A DNA stretch of 5,811 nt from IMG/VR virus record IMGVR_UViG_2660238423_000013, positions 1-5,811 of that record; one strand, 5' to 3'. The translations under genes were made by a program, and so were the position numbers. Origin of the DNA: a virus (taxonomy: Duplodnaviria; Heunggongvirae; Uroviricota; Caudoviricetes). The notes under the pieces were generated by a model. That model saw only the letters and a list, made by a program, of their open reading frames with translations. It did not search any database and was not told where the DNA came from. Positions 1 through 5,811 of this stretch are shown in pieces; position 1 is the first letter of the stretch, and each line of letters begins with the position of its first letter.

Positions 1-2763
<2,763 letters not shown>

Positions 2764-2789
<26 letters not shown>

Positions 2790-3309
2790 TCAGCAACCCC
2801 GGTATCAGTTCATCCAGCGCGGCTGCTTTGTTCATGGCTTTGATGATATCCCGTTTCAGGAAATCAACATGTCGGTTTTCCAGTTCCGGAAAACGCCGCT
2901 GCACCGACAGGGGGATCCCGTCGAGAATACTGGCAATTTCACCTGCGATCCGCGACAGCACGAAAGTACAGAATGCGGTTTCCACCACTTCAGCGGAGTC
3001 TCTGGCATTTTTCAGCTCCTGTGCGTCGGCCTGCGCACGCGTAAGTCGATGGCGTTCGTACTCAATAGTCCCTGGCTGGAGATCTGTCTCGCTGGCCTGC
3101 CGCAGTTCTTCAACTTCCCGGCGCAGCTTTTCGTTCTCAATTTCAGCATCCCTTTCGGCATACCATTTTATGACGGCGGCAGAGTCATAAAGCACCTCAT
3201 TACCCTTGCCACCGCCTCGCAGAACGGGCATTCCCTGTTCCTGCCAGTTCTGAATGGTACGGATACTCGCACCGAAAATGTCAGCCAGCTGCTTTTTGTT
3301 GACTTCCAT
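2764..3309 (-). CDS. nu1: Terminase small subunit gpNu1 (181 aa; cosB-binding winged-HTH protein)
   Basis: The 181-aa product MEVNKKQLADIFGASIRTIQNWQEQGMPVLRGGGKGNEVLYDSAAVIKWYAERDAEIENEKL... matches lambda Nu1 in length and, by recollection, sequence. It sits immediately downstream of cosB/cosN on the minus strand, as in lambda. Confidence 0.95.
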
Positions 3310-3486
3310 TGTTCATTCCACGGACAAAAACAGAGAAAGGAAACGACAGAGGCCAAAAAGCTCGTTTTCAGCACCTGTCGTTTCCTTTCTTTTCAGGGGG
3401 TGTTTTAAATAAAAACATTAGGTTACGGCGAAGAAGAACGGAAACGCCTTAAACCGGAAAATTTTCATAAATAGCGAAAACCCGCG
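3310..3486 (-). promoter_or_regulatory. cosB: terminase (Nu1) binding region with R3, an IHF-site-like AT-rich segment, R2 and R1
   Basis: The reverse complement of 3310..3498 reads gggcggcgacctcgcgggttttcgctatttatgaaaattttccggtttaaggcgtttccgttcttcttcg...gaaaagaaaggaaacgacaggtgctgaaaacgagctttttggcctctgtcgtttcctttctctg, which matches the lambda left end as I recall it except for a few substitutions. R-element cores (ggaaacg / cgtttcc) lie at 3339-3348 (R1), 3375-3390 (R2, opposite orientation) and 3439-3446 (R3). The AT-rich segment at about 3395-3430 sits where lambda has IHF site I1. Confidence 0.85.
3334..3390. repeat. Perfect 16-bp inverted repeat pair, agaaaggaaacgacag (3334-3349) and ctgtcgtttcctttct (3375-3390): cosB R1/R2 elements
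   Basis: Direct inspection: the two 16-mers are exact reverse complements separated by 25 bp. They correspond to the gpNu1-binding R1 and R2 elements of lambda cosB. Confidence 0.85.
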
Positions 3487-3498
3487 AGGTCGCCGCCC
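3487..3498 (-). other. cosN: 12-nt cohesive-end sequence (GGGCGGCGACCT on the minus strand), terminase nicking site
   Basis: The + strand has aggtcgccgccc at 3487-3498, the reverse complement of GGGCGGCGACCT, which is the lambda 12-nt 5' overhang. The flanking ~60 bp at 3499-3560 (rc ...cattatcattttcgcgggtcctttccggcgatccgacaggttacgg) resembles the lambda right end where cosQ lies. Confidence 0.9.
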
Positions 3499-3750
3499 CG
3501 TAACCTGTCGGATCGCCGGAAAGGACCCGCGAAAATGATAATGGTTATCAGTTGCAGCAAATCCAGTTTCTTCCACCATCGCACCGGACCAGCGACCATG
3601 AGGGGACAACGCCGCGCTCCGTTTACGCGGTAAACCCCGGTGTGTATCGTTTTTGATTATCCCCGCACACTCGCGCAGAGTAGTCTCCCTGTCGGGCTGC
3701 GGTCTCTGTTAATGAGGGAATACAGCGACGATACGGCGCATCAGCAAAAC

Positions 3751-4218
3751 TTAGTTCAGGCACTGAGTGCGGATATAGTCCTGTGCCCCTTCCAGCTGCT
3801 TCTGCATTGTCATCAACCGTTCTCTGAGGATGAAATAATCCCGTGTAACGGTGTCTGCCAGTTGGGGGCCGGTTGCATTATCCACGCGGGCGGTGCCGGT
3901 GGCTTCACGCACGGGACCTGGACAGGTGGCGTTGATCCGCAGGCTGCGGTGACCAGCGGCAACGTCAGCGCGAAGAGTTTCATTTTCAGCTCTCGCATCG
4001 GCTAATTCCCTCGAGTATCTGGCATCAAGTGCAGCAACATCACGCTGGCGCTGCTGCATATCAGTAATGGTTGCATTTGCCAGCTCCAGCTCACTGACTT
4101 TTTTATCGCGCTGCTCTTTGTAGGTTATGGCGTTATCACGGTAATGATTCAGCCCCAGACTAAGCGCACCACAGGCCACCAGCAGGGCAATGATGACCAC
4201 GCACAGTACGCGGTTCAT
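3751..4218 (-). CDS. Rz: Rz i-spanin (inner-membrane spanin subunit, 155 aa)
   Basis: It has an N-terminal TM segment (MNRVLCVVIIALLVACGALSLGL) followed by NHYRDNAITYKEQRDKKVSELELANATITDMQQRQRDVAALDARYSRELADARAENETLRADVAAG..., clearly homologous to lambda Rz. The Rz1 frame is embedded within it. Confidence 0.9.
   Translation of the reverse strand: MNRVLCVVIIALLVACGALSLGLNHYRDNAITYKEQRDKKVSELELANATITDMQQRQRDVAALDARYSRELADARAENETLRADVAAGHRSLRINATCPGPVREATGTARVDNATGPQLADTVTRDYFILRERLMTMQKQLEGAQDYIRTQCLN
3813..3998 (-). CDS. Rz1: Rz1 o-spanin (outer-membrane lipoprotein spanin subunit, 61 aa), fully embedded in Rz in another reading frame
   Basis: MRELKMKLFALTLPLVTAACGSTPPVQVPCVKPPAPPAWIMQPAPNWQTPLHGIISSSENG has a signal peptide with a lipobox-like TAAC and a proline-rich mature region (CVKPPAPPAWIMQP), as in lambda Rz1. 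It sits out of frame inside Rz, the hallmark embedded spanin architecture. Confidence 0.85.
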   Translation of the reverse strand: MRELKMKLFALTLPLVTAACGSTPPVQVPCVKPPAPPAWIMQPAPNWQTPLHGIISSSENG

Positions 4219-4219
4219 T

Positions 4220-4318
4220 TCACCACCAGCGTATCTGACCGATGAAATAACCGGAGGCCATAATCACAAACACCCGCCAGATAAGAATGAACTTCCAGGT
4301 AGATAATTTTTCAGCCAT
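4220..4318 (-). CDS. Hypothetical small hydrophobic protein (32 aa from ATG at 4318; possibly 45 aa from an in-frame GTG at 4357); function unknown
   Basis: Not in the ORF track because it is under 60 aa. The minus strand reads ATG GCT GAA AAA ... TGG TGG TGA = MAEKLSTWKFILIWRVFVIMASGYFIGQIRWW. GGGAG lies 9 nt upstream of the ATG. An in-frame GTG 13 codons further upstream is preceded by AAGGAG at 5-nt spacing and would give MFDFSKLIREIRVMAEK.... The stop TGA ends 1 nt before the Rz ATG. There is one ~20-residue hydrophobic stretch. I recognise no homolog, and it could be a chance ORF. Confidence 0.3.
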   Translation of the reverse strand: MAEKLSTWKFILIWRVFVIMASGYFIGQIRWW

Positions 4319-4393
4319 CACTCGAATCTCCCGAATCAGTTTGCTAAAATCAAACACACTTTCTCCTTTGACTTTTCCAGAGTCAGGAAACAC

Positions 4394-4434
4394 AAAACCC
4401 CGCTTGCAGCCAACAAACGGGGTTTTTACTTTTA
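4394..4434. terminator. Intrinsic-terminator-like hairpin, potentially bidirectional, in the R-Rz spacer
   Basis: aaaacccCG (4394-4402) pairs with CGgggtttt (4418-4426), a 9-bp stem with 5 G:C pairs and a 15-nt loop. On the + strand it is followed by tacttttatt. On the minus strand the stem is followed by UUUUGUGUUUCC. Confidence 0.5.
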
Positions 4435-4516
4435 TTCACTTAGTTTTTGTCAGTTCGCAGGATTTCGTGTTATCCGTCCGTGTGAGCAAACCTCATTTTT
4501 CAGCAAAATATTCTTC

Positions 4517-5050
4517 TTATCTGTCGATTCCCCAGCACGCCAGCGCGCTCTCCTGGTCACGACGGGATACCTGACCGTAACAGTTGTTTGAACGAATACG
4601 GCAGTCTCTGCCACCGTCCTTAATCCACCAGCGAATCGCTTCGCAGGCACCTTTTCGATCACCTGCATTAATTCGTCTGTAAAACGTCGACGGGAAACAC
4701 TTACCGGGACCAATGTTGTACGGACAGAATGACGCGATCCCCGCTTTCTGGGGTTCGGTCAGCGGCACTTTGATGTTTTTCTCCACCCATGCCAGCGCCT
4801 TATCACGCTCAATGGCGTTAACCCGGTCGCATTTTTCCTTCGACAACTTCATGCCCGGAACGACAGGTTTACCATCCACCAAGATGGCACCGCGGCAGAT
4901 GGTCCAGATACCCGCACCATCACGGTATGCCGTGGTGTGGTTACCTTCCTTTTCATCCAGAAACTGGTCGAGGATTTCAGGCGCAGACGCCCCTGCACCA
5001 ATCAGCGCCAGAACGGCAGCCGACAGGCCGTATCTGATTTTTGCGTTCAT
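4517..5050 (-). CDS. R: Endolysin R: SAR-type phage lysozyme of the T4-lysozyme (GH24) family, 177 aa
   Basis: The N-terminus has a Gly/Ala-rich weakly hydrophobic segment (YGLSAAVLALIGAGASA) typical of signal-arrest-release domains. The catalytic E-x8-D-x5-T spacing (E in DEKEG, D in YRDG, T in IWTI) matches T4 lysozyme E11/D20/T26. Overall it resembles the 177-aa lysozymes of phage 21 / Qin (RrrQ) / Stx phages as I recall them. It is not the lambda R transglycosylase. Confidence 0.9.
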   Translation of the reverse strand: MNAKIRYGLSAAVLALIGAGASAPEILDQFLDEKEGNHTTAYRDGAGIWTICRGAILVDGKPVVPGMKLSKEKCDRVNAIERDKALAWVEKNIKVPLTEPQKAGIASFCPYNIGPGKCFPSTFYRRINAGDRKGACEAIRWWIKDGGRDCRIRSNNCYGQVSRRDQESALACWGIDR

Positions 5051-5100
5051 GGATATTTATCAGGATTTATCGATTTCAAATCCCTGGATATGTTAAGTCT

Positions 5101-5445
5101 TCAGGCCAGCGGTGGAGTCTTCAGAGAACCAGTAATTATTCCCGGTAGTTTTCCTCTGTAGGTTATCAACACATCCTGCGCCTCTAAAATGATGGGCCGC
5201 TTTTCCGGCAACGGACCATCCCCTTCACATAACCCGGCAGCAACATCCATGAAAAACTGCTTCGCCTGCTTTTTCGCCTCAGCTTCGTAAAACTCCAGCG
5301 TGGCTCCTTCAGTACGGTCAAGACTAATCGCCACATCTGGCAACAACAGTGACGGATACCCACCAATTTCCAGTGCCACAGTAACAGTAATCTTATCCGG
5401 GTAATTATTTATCCCTTTAACAACCAGTTCGTATTTTTTCTTCAT
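5101..5445 (-). CDS. Uncharacterised 114-aa protein located between holin and endolysin; probably the YdfR/DUF1327-type protein that occupies this slot in Qin-like prophages
   Basis: The ATG at 5445 is preceded by GGGGAGAG with 7-nt spacing, and this SD overlaps the S stop codon TAA (5450-5452), indicating translational coupling to S. The product MKKKYELVVKGINNYPDKITVTVALEIGGYPSLLLPDVAISLDRTEGATLEFYEAEAKKQ... is acidic, with no TM segment or signal peptide. Assignment to the YdfR family rests on gene position (essQ-ydfR-rrrQ order in E. coli K-12 Qin) and memory, not on a search. Confidence 0.75.
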   Translation of the reverse strand: MKKKYELVVKGINNYPDKITVTVALEIGGYPSLLLPDVAISLDRTEGATLEFYEAEAKKQAKQFFMDVAAGLCEGDGPLPEKRPIILEAQDVLITYRGKLPGIITGSLKTPPLA

Positions 5446-5449
5446 CGCT

Positions 5450-5665
5450 TTACTCTCCCCGCGCCGCCTTACGACGGTCCTCTCTGATTTTGAAATACAG
5501 GTTAGTAAGATACGTCAGCAGGCCAAACAGCAGACTCCCCAGCACACCTATCGCCACCCACTGGGACGGAGAGACTTTGTCCAGCAGCTGCAGTAACCAG
5601 TATCCCGTCCCCACCGCTGACGTGGTGTATGACACACCCGTTGTGATTTTTTCCATCTGGTACAT
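5450..5665 (-). CDS. S: Holin S, class II pinholin of the phage-21 S21 type, with dual-start motif (71 aa from ATG 5665; 68 aa from ATG 5656)
   Basis: [71 protein letters not shown] has two TMDs and a charged C-terminus, closely resembling S21 as I recall it. GGGAG lies 8 nt upstream of the first ATG. The longer ORF-track version (5450..5776, 108 aa) is an unsupported upstream extension that runs through the terminator hairpin. Confidence 0.9.
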
Positions 5666-5726
5666 ACCCCGTCTCCCGTTATCCGTAACCGGCTCATTTA
5701 AACCGTCTGGTCTGTTTCCTCCGGCT

Positions 5727-5763
5727 CTACAAAAATAATGTCCATCATTTTTAATGGACACTA
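5727..5763 (-). terminator. tR'-like intrinsic terminator in the late-operon leader upstream of S
   Basis: The minus strand reads ...tagTGTCCATtaaaaatgATGGACAttatttttgtagag. It forms a 7-bp perfect stem (extendable to 10 bp with a G:U pair), an 8-nt loop, and a U-rich tract UUAUUUUUGU. It lies ~65 nt upstream of the S start, where lambdoid phages place the tR' terminator that Q antiterminates. Confidence 0.5.
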
Positions 5764-5811
5764 TCGTATGAAACACCGGACCTGGATCACTGAAGCTTTA
5801 CGTCTTCACCG

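Follow-up and report, generated by a model that had tools for sequence, protein, structure and literature searches.

A 5,811-nt stretch of a tailed-phage genome (Caudoviricetes; IMG/VR virus record IMGVR_UViG_2660238423_000013, positions 1 to 5,811; hereafter the window) carries, between the genes for endolysin R and the inner-membrane spanin (i-spanin) Rz, an open reading frame (ORF) of 45 codons. We read it as the protein-coding part of a mobile membrane-protein cassette with a layout resembling that of type I toxin–antitoxin (TA) systems, whose product would be a membrane-active accessory late protein contributing to lysis or tuning it, and we put the probability of this overall reading at roughly 0.6. 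Comparison of related loci directly supports the coding status of the ORF, the boundaries of the cassette, covariation in its hairpin, nucleotide-level constraint on a promoter motif and the range of genomic contexts (coordinates in Table 1). The gene family is already catalogued as phrog_6632; the cassette architecture and the predicted antisense RNA are new within the literature searched, in which we found no description of either, and a full-text search for the peptide was likewise empty.

Coding status and features of the 45-residue protein

Relatives of the ORF were gathered in four ways: by anchoring on Rz, by protein search, by look-up of the exact protein and by a scan of one genome per species. 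Comparison of the E. coli sequence with the E. fergusonii and metagenomic alleles gave proportions of synonymous and non-synonymous differences (pS and pN) of 0.51–0.59 and 0.08–0.15 and a ratio of non-synonymous to synonymous divergence (dN/dS) of 0.09–0.19 in frame, against 1.2–8.5 in the other two frames of the same strand. The 45-aa ORF is intact in 69 of the 76 fetched copies and its 32-aa core in all 76, with a few frameshifted singletons in the protein database, and the position of the start codon (GTG or TTG) is kept in 15 lineages. Frame, start and length are maintained in Escherichia, Citrobacter, Salmonella phages, Yersinia, Pantoea, Brenneria, Sodalis, Trabulsiella, Providencia and a Pseudomonas phage, and the species scan added homologues in nine further species representatives. 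A 298-nt spacer could by itself yield an ORF of this kind; it is the conservation together with the substitution pattern that sets this one apart from a chance ORF, and on these comparisons it is almost certainly a real protein gene. The family is small, an exhaustive profile search returning just 36 clusters at 50% identity. This type of spacer is present in 870 of 5,426 complete E. coli genomes (about one in six) and in many phages converting to Shiga toxin (Stx) types Stx1a, Stx2a and Stx2c, H-19B included. The 451 bases around it recur at 100% identity in many chromosomes of E. coli strains that make Shiga toxin (STEC; O145, O111 and others) and in Stx1a-converting phages, and at 96–98% identity in H-19B, CP-1639 and TL-2011c.

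A preliminary description of the window, made from the letters alone, had proposed a hydrophobic ORF of 32 aa from an ATG at 4318, or of 45 aa from a GTG at 4357 preceded by AAGGAG. Both are present in the sequence, as are the single hydrophobic stretch of transmembrane (TM) length and the stop codon one nucleotide ahead of Rz that it had noted, and the 45-aa GTG form with its own Shine–Dalgarno (SD) sequence proves to be the genuine gene for a protein with a single TM domain, the GTG being the conserved start. Frame conservation with synonymous-biased divergence, which it had named as a check, is what the above dN/dS values show, and its suggestion of a remnant of an inserted gene is at odds with an intact ORF under purifying selection. 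The spacer exists, with a length of 298 nt instead of the 297 given. That the ORF is unannotated is right for the majority of the 53 phage records containing it and wrong elsewhere: the Prokaryotic Genome Annotation Pipeline (PGAP) annotates the 45-aa form in some genomes (WP_000459347.1, hypothetical protein), and the CP-1639 copy is CAH23245.1. Similarly, the earlier failure to recognise a homologue holds in that only families without an assigned function are matched, and not in that matches exist, namely RefSeq hypothetical proteins and phrog_6632 (E = 5e-28; residues 13–57 of a 57-aa extended ORF against profile positions 1–45). The ORF covers the whole of this 45-position family, which has no assigned function and which its divergent relatives match too.

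The start codon occupies 4357–4355 and the stop codon, TGA, 4222–4220, so that base 4219 alone separates it from the Rz ATG (4218–4216). Longer readings were rejected. The mechanical ORF, of 57 aa from a GTG at 4393, enters the hairpin that precedes the gene, and both this form and annotations extended to 65–72 aa read through the hairpin with an extension that is unconserved as protein. A 95-aa ORF on the plus strand (4287–4574; a hypothetical protein of CP-1639, EC_CP1639_38), runs opposite the small gene and the end of R and crosses the boundary of the cassette; in all likelihood it is spurious, and the low dN/dS in its frame, which lies on the opposite strand with matched third positions, is the usual mirror of the true frame.

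Conserved motifs of the protein are [DN]-[FI]-S-K-[LI] near the N-terminus, Met14, W-[KR]-F at the start of the membrane segment, G-Y-[FL]-[IL]-G (a GxxxG motif) and a frequent R-W-W at the C-terminus. AlphaFold2 places helices at residues 4–17 and 20–44 with a break between them (mean predicted local distance difference test score 83.8), the hydrophobic stretch comprises residues 23–42, and the length of 45 aa lies within the size range of type I toxins (<60 aa, with a TM helix). The most likely product is an inner-membrane protein in which a hinge joins a short amphipathic helix on the cytoplasmic side to a single TM helix bearing GYFIG and aromatic belts; by the positive-inside rule its N-terminus is probably cytoplasmic. 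Codon 28 of the window copy (4274–4276, minus strand) is CGG, encoding Arg; CTG (Leu) is nearly universal among relatives, the exceptions being Gln in E. albertii and Ser or Ala in other lineages. The resulting charge lies five residues inside the TM segment and is not a sequencing error, because the Arg allele is found at 100% identity in many STEC strains and Stx1a phages.

Searches of Pfam (E ≤ 0.1) and NCBIfam (E ≤ 1), the Hok, Ldr, TisB, Ibs and ShoB models included, of the PADLOC defence models (E ≤ 1) and of PDB sequences gave no match for the ORF. As to holins, there is no holin PHROG or Pfam match, the C-terminus is just R-W-W and the family also occurs outside lysis cassettes; as to spanins, three residues follow the TM domain, there is no lipobox, and Rz and Rz1 are adjacent genes. 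It is neither a holin, whether judged by family or by hallmarks, nor a spanin; by sequence, the protein belongs to phrog_6632 and to nothing else among the families tested.

Several features point to a possible second start within the ORF. Across 14 lineages Arg9 is encoded solely by CGG or AGG and Glu10 solely by GAG, so that GGGAG is kept, and Met14 is invariant even in family members of 40–50% identity; this constraint on [C/A]GG GAG ahead of an invariant ATG suggests internal initiation yielding a 32-aa form. In seven loci (L028 and six other IMG/VR loci) codon 12 has changed from CGA to TGA (equivalent to window positions 4322–4324) with the 32-aa ORF kept, and these alleles may either have decayed along with cryptic prophages or be a sign that the 32-aa form is enough.

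The cassette and its genomic contexts

Homology between copies in unrelated contexts begins about 10 nt upstream of a G+C-rich hairpin and ends exactly at the stop codon of the ORF. Every copy holds, in the same order, an A-run, the hairpin, a T-run, a small stem–loop (SL1), an SD (AAGGAG, AAGGGAG or GAGGAG), the GTG start and the ORF. As judged from these alignments, the conserved unit is very probably a mobile cassette of about 230 bp and not just the ORF. A terminator scan scored the hairpin as an intrinsic terminator on the gene strand; on the plus strand, TTTTTACTTTTATT comes directly after it. Its positions are 96% paired over 14 lineages, four pairs show compensatory double changes and none of 500 shuffles reaches the observed covariation; RNAalifold recovers the hairpin as well. 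SL1 is a stem with a loop of about 7 nt in every lineage, formed by different stems (UGACU/AGUCA, CCUUG/CAAGG, CGUUA/UAACG, CCUUCUG/CAGAAGG), and its 3′ arm overlaps the SD on the mRNA in most of them. RNAalifold misses SL1, the stems being out of register in the alignment. An Rfam search of the whole window (E ≤ 1) found no known RNA family: a sub-threshold match to the rimP leader is the terminator hairpin itself, and two matches to microRNA models are a hairpin of the cos region and spurious. A scan of the spacer revealed no sigma-70-like promoter on the gene strand between R and the ORF, and nothing upstream of the hairpin is conserved across contexts, hence there is no conserved sense promoter. 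Stand-alone copies likewise have terminators directly upstream.

At least ten contexts house the cassette, which in every case has the orientation of its neighbours, and in at least six of them it lies between an endolysin gene and a gene for a spanin or spanin-like lipoprotein, the partners being non-homologous. Junctions of this kind are formed by a PF00959 lysozyme and a PF03245 Rz (the window; also Escherichia sp.), a GH19 endolysin and a DUF2514 i-spanin behind a Phage_holin_8 holin (E. fergusonii), a phrog_873 endolysin and a phrog_13 Rz behind a phrog_126 holin (Citrobacter braakii), a phrog_181 endolysin and phrog_1026/1275 spanins (Citrobacter sp.), a PG_binding_1 endolysin followed by two lipoprotein genes (a myovirus-like contig), and an endolysin followed by Rz in Salmonella phage SPN3UB, where the ORF is unannotated. 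Other copies lie in baseplate clusters, where SEN34, Yersinia similis and Pantoea stewartii have the cassette between the spike and wedge genes and a metagenomic contig has it next to them, in a small-gene zone of the tail region of a Pseudomonas phage, and among ParE/RelB/HicAB toxin–antitoxin genes adjoining a terminase. The repeated landing at non-homologous endolysin–spanin junctions argues for a link to lysis. In the operon contexts the next gene, whichever it is, begins 1–16 nt past the stop, and the last codons of the ORF (TGG TGG TGA or, in a variant C-terminus, AAG GGG TAG) are SD-like; the cassette may thus pass ribosomes to the following gene by translational coupling, which would make its insertion non-polar.

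One of the settings outside lysis cassettes deserves separate mention. Upstream of a terminase gene (loci L103–L105, positions 2501–2635), a 44-aa member with the same hairpin and the same antisense −10 element (see below) stands alone among ParE/RelB, HicAB and BrnA genes, a neighbourhood typical of addiction or defence modules.

Where related phages share R and Rz with the window, other inserts or none occupy the junction, as expected of the extra DNA called a moron in the Juhala/Hendrix sense. Morons also have a promoter of their own and a downstream terminator, by which they can be expressed from the prophage; here the terminator lies upstream and no sense promoter was found, and only loosely, as extra DNA, does the cassette qualify as a moron. 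The Qin prophage of K-12 has no named homologue, and its rrrQ and rzpQ overlap. The R–Rz junction is a mosaic hot spot, whose other inserts are ant and a 43–49-aa TM ORF (phrog_4906; annotated in strain Sakai as ECs_5722 and ECs_5741). An ORF of the latter type, XECs191, shows weak ribosome occupancy in ribosome profiling of an uninduced Sakai culture (PMC5597208); of the two small ORFs it alone is listed in the supplement of that study, where the 45-aa ORF does not appear. Other junctions carry up to four tandem small TM ORFs, namely a variant of phrog_6632 whose C-terminal half differs, phrog_4906, phrog_1115/4493 and a 28-aa ORF ending in AIRWW. Such ORFs (phrog_4906, phrog_1115/4493/3246 and the 28-aa MSAELIRAMAFAIRIVAIAVLVWAIRWW) were seen at about 936–1500 of locus L062 and upstream of Rz in L034, L011, L081 and L017; several of them end in IRWW with the stop 1 nt before Rz, and C-terminal halves appear to have been swapped between families. 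The roughly 90 nt of spacer from the R stop to the hairpin (4427–4516, minus strand) move with R and not with the cassette, being homologous still in phages whose junction carries ant or other inserts, and no ORF, promoter or structure was found in them to account for this conservation.

Predicted antisense RNA, proposed function and rival explanations

The first codons of the ORF contain, on the opposite strand, a sequence resembling an extended −10 promoter element (TGCTAAAAT, the complement of the codons GAT-TTT-AGC-A), which points at the hairpin, has an upstream hexamer (TCGAAT or TCGCAA) at a distance of 17 nt and is invariant in 14 of 15 cassettes. It remains −10-like where the encoded residues change (TGCTAATAT in C. 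braakii and SPN3UB, TGCTAGAAT in the 44-aa relative, TGATAAACT in a 47-aa relative) and is unchanged in the Pseudomonas phage despite a GC-rich background. The per-codon table of 14 lineages holds no synonymous change at GAT3, TTT4, AGC5, AAA6, GAG10 and CGA12, whereas invariant residues further downstream vary synonymously (K22, AAG/AAA; F23, TTC/TTT; I39; R43; L18). Among invariant-residue codons, two of seven vary synonymously within codons 1–14 versus five of five downstream (hypergeometric p = 21/792 = 0.027), and the three silent positions that never move (GAT3, TTT4, AGC5) are exactly those at which a change would break the TG or the −10 hexamer.

Transcription from this promoter would start at about 4356–4358, opposite the GTG codon, and end at the hairpin, yielding an RNA whose folds comprise a single-stranded 5′ tail, SL1 and the terminator and which would leave the internal ATG14 start uncovered. 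Such an RNA would explain why the conserved block reaches just past the hairpin to the antisense T-run and why the terminator is bidirectional, and on the strength of the sequence constraints we consider its existence likely. A sigma-70-like site further along the plus strand (4235–4264) was rejected as the antisense promoter, its hexamers being unconserved in other lineages.

These elements can be combined into a course of expression. Given the terminator directly upstream and the lack of a conserved sense promoter, the gene would be expressed by read-through only, which in a lambdoid late operon would mean transcription antiterminated by Q once the prophage is induced. Stray transcripts in the lysogen would end at the hairpin, and the antisense RNA would mask those passing it. 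Induction would let late mRNA outrun the antisense RNA and so allow translation of the peptide and, next, of Rz, the last codons of the former supplying the SD-like sequence that hands ribosomes to the latter. The peptide would accordingly be silent in the lysogen and act late, as an accessory protein of the membrane. We infer the antisense RNA, the dual starts, the coupling, the topology and the effect on lysis from the features described above; a lysis-related role as such falls somewhat short of even odds. Among the functions listed in the preliminary description, a type-I-toxin-like peptide fits the anatomy best in that the antisense −10 and the terminator bracket the start, and fits poorly in that there is neither an own promoter nor toxin homology.

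A more far-reaching combination would make the cassette one of a class, not described before, of promoterless, type I TA-like 'plug-in' units that parasitise or serve phage late operons and tune the timing of holins and signal-anchor-release (SAR) endolysins. Here the bidirectional terminator and a constitutive antisense RNA of about 78 nt would keep the peptide off until antiterminated late transcription overrides both; the RNA would mask the first of the two starts and so set the ratio of the 45-aa to the 32-aa isoform; the peptide, oligomerising through GxxxG, would depolarise or otherwise perturb the inner membrane; and the SD-like tail, by restoring translation of the next gene, would explain the hops between non-homologous junctions from Escherichia to Pseudomonas phages. 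With all its parts taken together, we regard this combination as speculative and rather unlikely.

Several observations weigh against the cassette being a TA-like unit concerned with lysis. Classical type I toxins have their own promoter and none is conserved here; the family searches found nothing similar in sequence among known toxin, holin and defence families; and the copies in baseplate clusters and TA islands mean that the protein needs no lysis cassette. The window copy itself might be attenuated or altered in function by Arg28. On the side of the antisense RNA, the −35 element is poor (3/6), the invariant promoter nucleotides also encode the invariant residues D-F-S-K, the part of the constraint that falls on GGGAG and ATG is better explained by an internal translation start, and the stability of SL1 (z −0.1 to −2.95) is not significantly above that of shuffled sequence, which makes it weak evidence. 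Among 63 Hfq-bound small RNA candidates of E. coli O157 Sakai (Tree 2014, Hfq-CRAC, supplementary table), none lies at the R–Rz junctions checked (Sp9 and Sp15), a result that is uninformative because these junctions hold ant and a different small ORF, so that the list cannot test the antisense RNA. Of the individual candidates, EcOnc22 (~85 nt) maps to the tail region, EcOnc12 lies downstream of Rz and EcOnc52 at the end of a nanS-like gene.

The rival that survives best draws on these same points and holds that the gene is real and the antisense RNA is not. Constraint on codons 1–14 would then act at the level of the mRNA (the GTG initiation region, the internal SD and ATG, local structure), and the hairpin would be a terminator or insulator travelling with the gene or a stabilising 5′ structure. 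The conserved GGGAG and ATG14 fit an internal start, D3-F4-S5-K6 are invariant as residues in any case, the −35 is weak, SL1 is thermodynamically marginal, and the single TGnTAnAAT of the window is about what chance would supply (mean 0.56 in shuffles). What this rival leaves unexplained is that the unchanging silent positions are the very ones that would break the extended −10, that the motif stays −10-like (TAATAT, TAGAAT, TAAACT) where residues change and keeps GAT and TTT in the Pseudomonas phage, and that the conserved block upstream of the hairpin is just long enough for an antisense T-run. We therefore consider it unlikely, if to be taken seriously.

A second rival sees in the cassette a moron that aids the lysogen, for instance by superinfection exclusion or at the envelope, as HK97 gp15 does, with no relation to lysis and with the R–Rz junction as a tolerated insertion site. 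The copies in baseplate clusters, in the small-gene zone of the tail region and in TA islands agree with it, as do the mosaic nature of the junction, which holds ant and other small ORFs, and the weak ribosome occupancy of the neighbouring ORF type XECs191 in uninduced culture. Expression from the prophage is, however, hard to reconcile with a terminator directly upstream and no conserved sense promoter, and non-homologous endolysin–spanin junctions recur more often than one junction among dozens would predict, which renders this rival improbable.

The preliminary description had also raised an antiholin-like or lysis-timing function. As a dedicated partner of this phage's S21-type pinholin and SAR endolysin, for which the position in the lysis cassette, the single TM domain and the possible dual start speak, the protein is highly improbable: it accompanies a Phage_holin_8 holin with a GH19 endolysin, a phrog_126 holin or no nearby holin at all, it resembles no holin or antiholin family, and the cassette has holins, endolysins and spanins of unrelated kinds as neighbours and is found in baseplate clusters and TA islands as well. 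Least credible is a translated leader that merely delivers ribosomes to Rz across the inserted spacer, the peptide being incidental or, in the extreme, a chance ORF, for although a single nucleotide parts the stop from the Rz ATG, the last codons contain an SD-like GGTGGTGA and downstream genes follow at 1–16 nt in operon contexts, the amino acids are under strong purifying selection across genera, the motifs are kept in members of 40–50% identity, and stand-alone copies have no closely following gene.

Lysis region, significance and comparison with known systems

The window covers the late region of a lambdoid E. coli prophage that resembles Stx phages, with its genes on the minus strand (Table 1). 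Between holin and endolysin lies an uncharacterised passenger of the DUF1327/YdfR family that is variable among related phages, being present in Sakai Sp9 and absent from Sp15. A lambda-type cosN is found at 3487–3498, where AGGTCGCCGCCC is the reverse complement of the lambda cohesive end GGGCGGCGACCT, and a long, near-perfect hairpin or inverted repeat at 3331–3393, between cosN and Nu1, is presumably part of cosB.

Table 1. Genes, signals and predicted elements of the window, ordered by position
Feature	Position	Strand	Remarks
Large terminase	864–2789	−	
Nu1	2764–3309	−	
i-spanin Rz, 155 aa, PF03245	3751–4218	−	Rz1 embedded at 3813–3998
Stop/start junction TGGTGGTGAAATG	4216–4228	−	Last codons W-W-stop form SD-like GGTGGTGA, 1 nt before Rz ATG
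R–Rz spacer, 298 nt	4219–4516	−	Houses the 45-aa ORF
Gene for the small membrane protein, 45 aa, from GTG start through TGA stop	4220–4357	−	phrog_6632; dN/dS, conserved start, AlphaFold2 model
Candidate 32-aa isoform from internal ATG (Met14)	4220–4318	−	ATG 4318–4316; reads MAEKLSTWKFILIWRVFVIMASGYFIGQIRWW
Predicted antisense promoter	4322–4350	+	−35-like TCGAAT 4322–4327, 17-nt spacer, extended −10 TGCTAAAAT 4342–4350
Internal GGGAG, codons 9–10, candidate SD for Met14	4328–4332	−	9 nt upstream of ATG
Predicted ~78-nt cis-antisense RNA	4356–4436	+	Inferred from promoter and hairpin; complementary to GTG start, SD, SL1 and hairpin
SD AAGGAG for GTG start	4363–4368	−	5-nt spacing; AAGGGAG/GAGGAG equivalent in all homologous cassettes
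SL1, small stem–loop between terminator and SD/start	4365–4387	.	Individual folds
G+C-rich hairpin with flanking A-run and T-run	4394–4426	both	Intrinsic-terminator-like both ways; 5′ cassette boundary
Endolysin R, 177 aa	4517–5050	−	Phage_lysozyme PF00959; N-terminal hydrophobic stretch; SAR nature inferred
DUF1327/YdfR-family gene, 114 aa	5101–5445	−	phrog_406, PF07041
S21-type class II holin	5450–5665, within ORF 5450–5776	−	The window's holin, a gene separate from the 45-aa ORF

The cassette lies inside the operon that controls release of Shiga toxin through lysis. If the peptide or the antisense RNA affects the timing of lysis, a so far unrecognised factor would help to determine how toxin and phage are released, and a new regulator would act beside the holin, endolysin and spanin genes. 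More broadly, the cassette would illustrate neatly how a small-protein gene crosses between unrelated phages with a portable regulatory kit (terminator, antisense RNA, downstream SD). ORFs of less than 50 aa that overlap RNA signals escape annotation, as this case shows.

Among known systems, the predicted layout is most reminiscent of SymE/SymR and Hok/Sok, with which it would share a short cis-antisense RNA over the SD and start that ends at an intrinsic terminator, and a location on prophages. In SymR the antisense promoter lies just inside the coding region, and SymE/SymR is the closest match to the predicted geometry; SymE differs in not being a membrane peptide, a feature in which the small single-TM-domain product is instead Hok-like. 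The type I TA system hokW-sokW of the Stx2 prophage Sp5 offers a further parallel in that HokW assists phage-induced lysis (PMC8621323). The cassette differs from these loci in lacking a promoter of its own, in lying co-directionally in late operons behind a terminator, and in showing no sequence similarity to Hok, Ldr, TisB, Ibs, ShoB or other toxin families.

Phage antisense RNAs that act inside operons are exemplified by P22 sar RNA, directed against ant, and lambda OOP, directed against cII. As predicted here, too, a short constitutive antisense RNA on the ribosome-binding region of a downstream gene sets the threshold of its expression; genes and sequences are others, the gene that the RNA would target in the cassette encodes a tiny membrane protein, and the unit as a whole moves between phages. 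Genes with dual starts encode both holin and antiholin in lambda (S105/S107) and in phage 21 (S68/S71). The cassette protein resembles these in being a small membrane protein of a lysis cassette with two in-frame candidate starts, each with an SD, and a charged N-terminal extension, and differs in having one TM domain, an RWW C-terminus instead of a charged tail, starts 13 codons apart instead of two to three, and no homology. In position it is matched by P2 LysA, a membrane protein encoded between the endolysin gene K and the spanin gene lysB that shifts the timing of lysis and is non-essential for it. Both are membrane proteins lying between endolysin and i-spanin genes, yet LysA is about three times larger, polytopic and without sequence relationship to the 45-aa protein.

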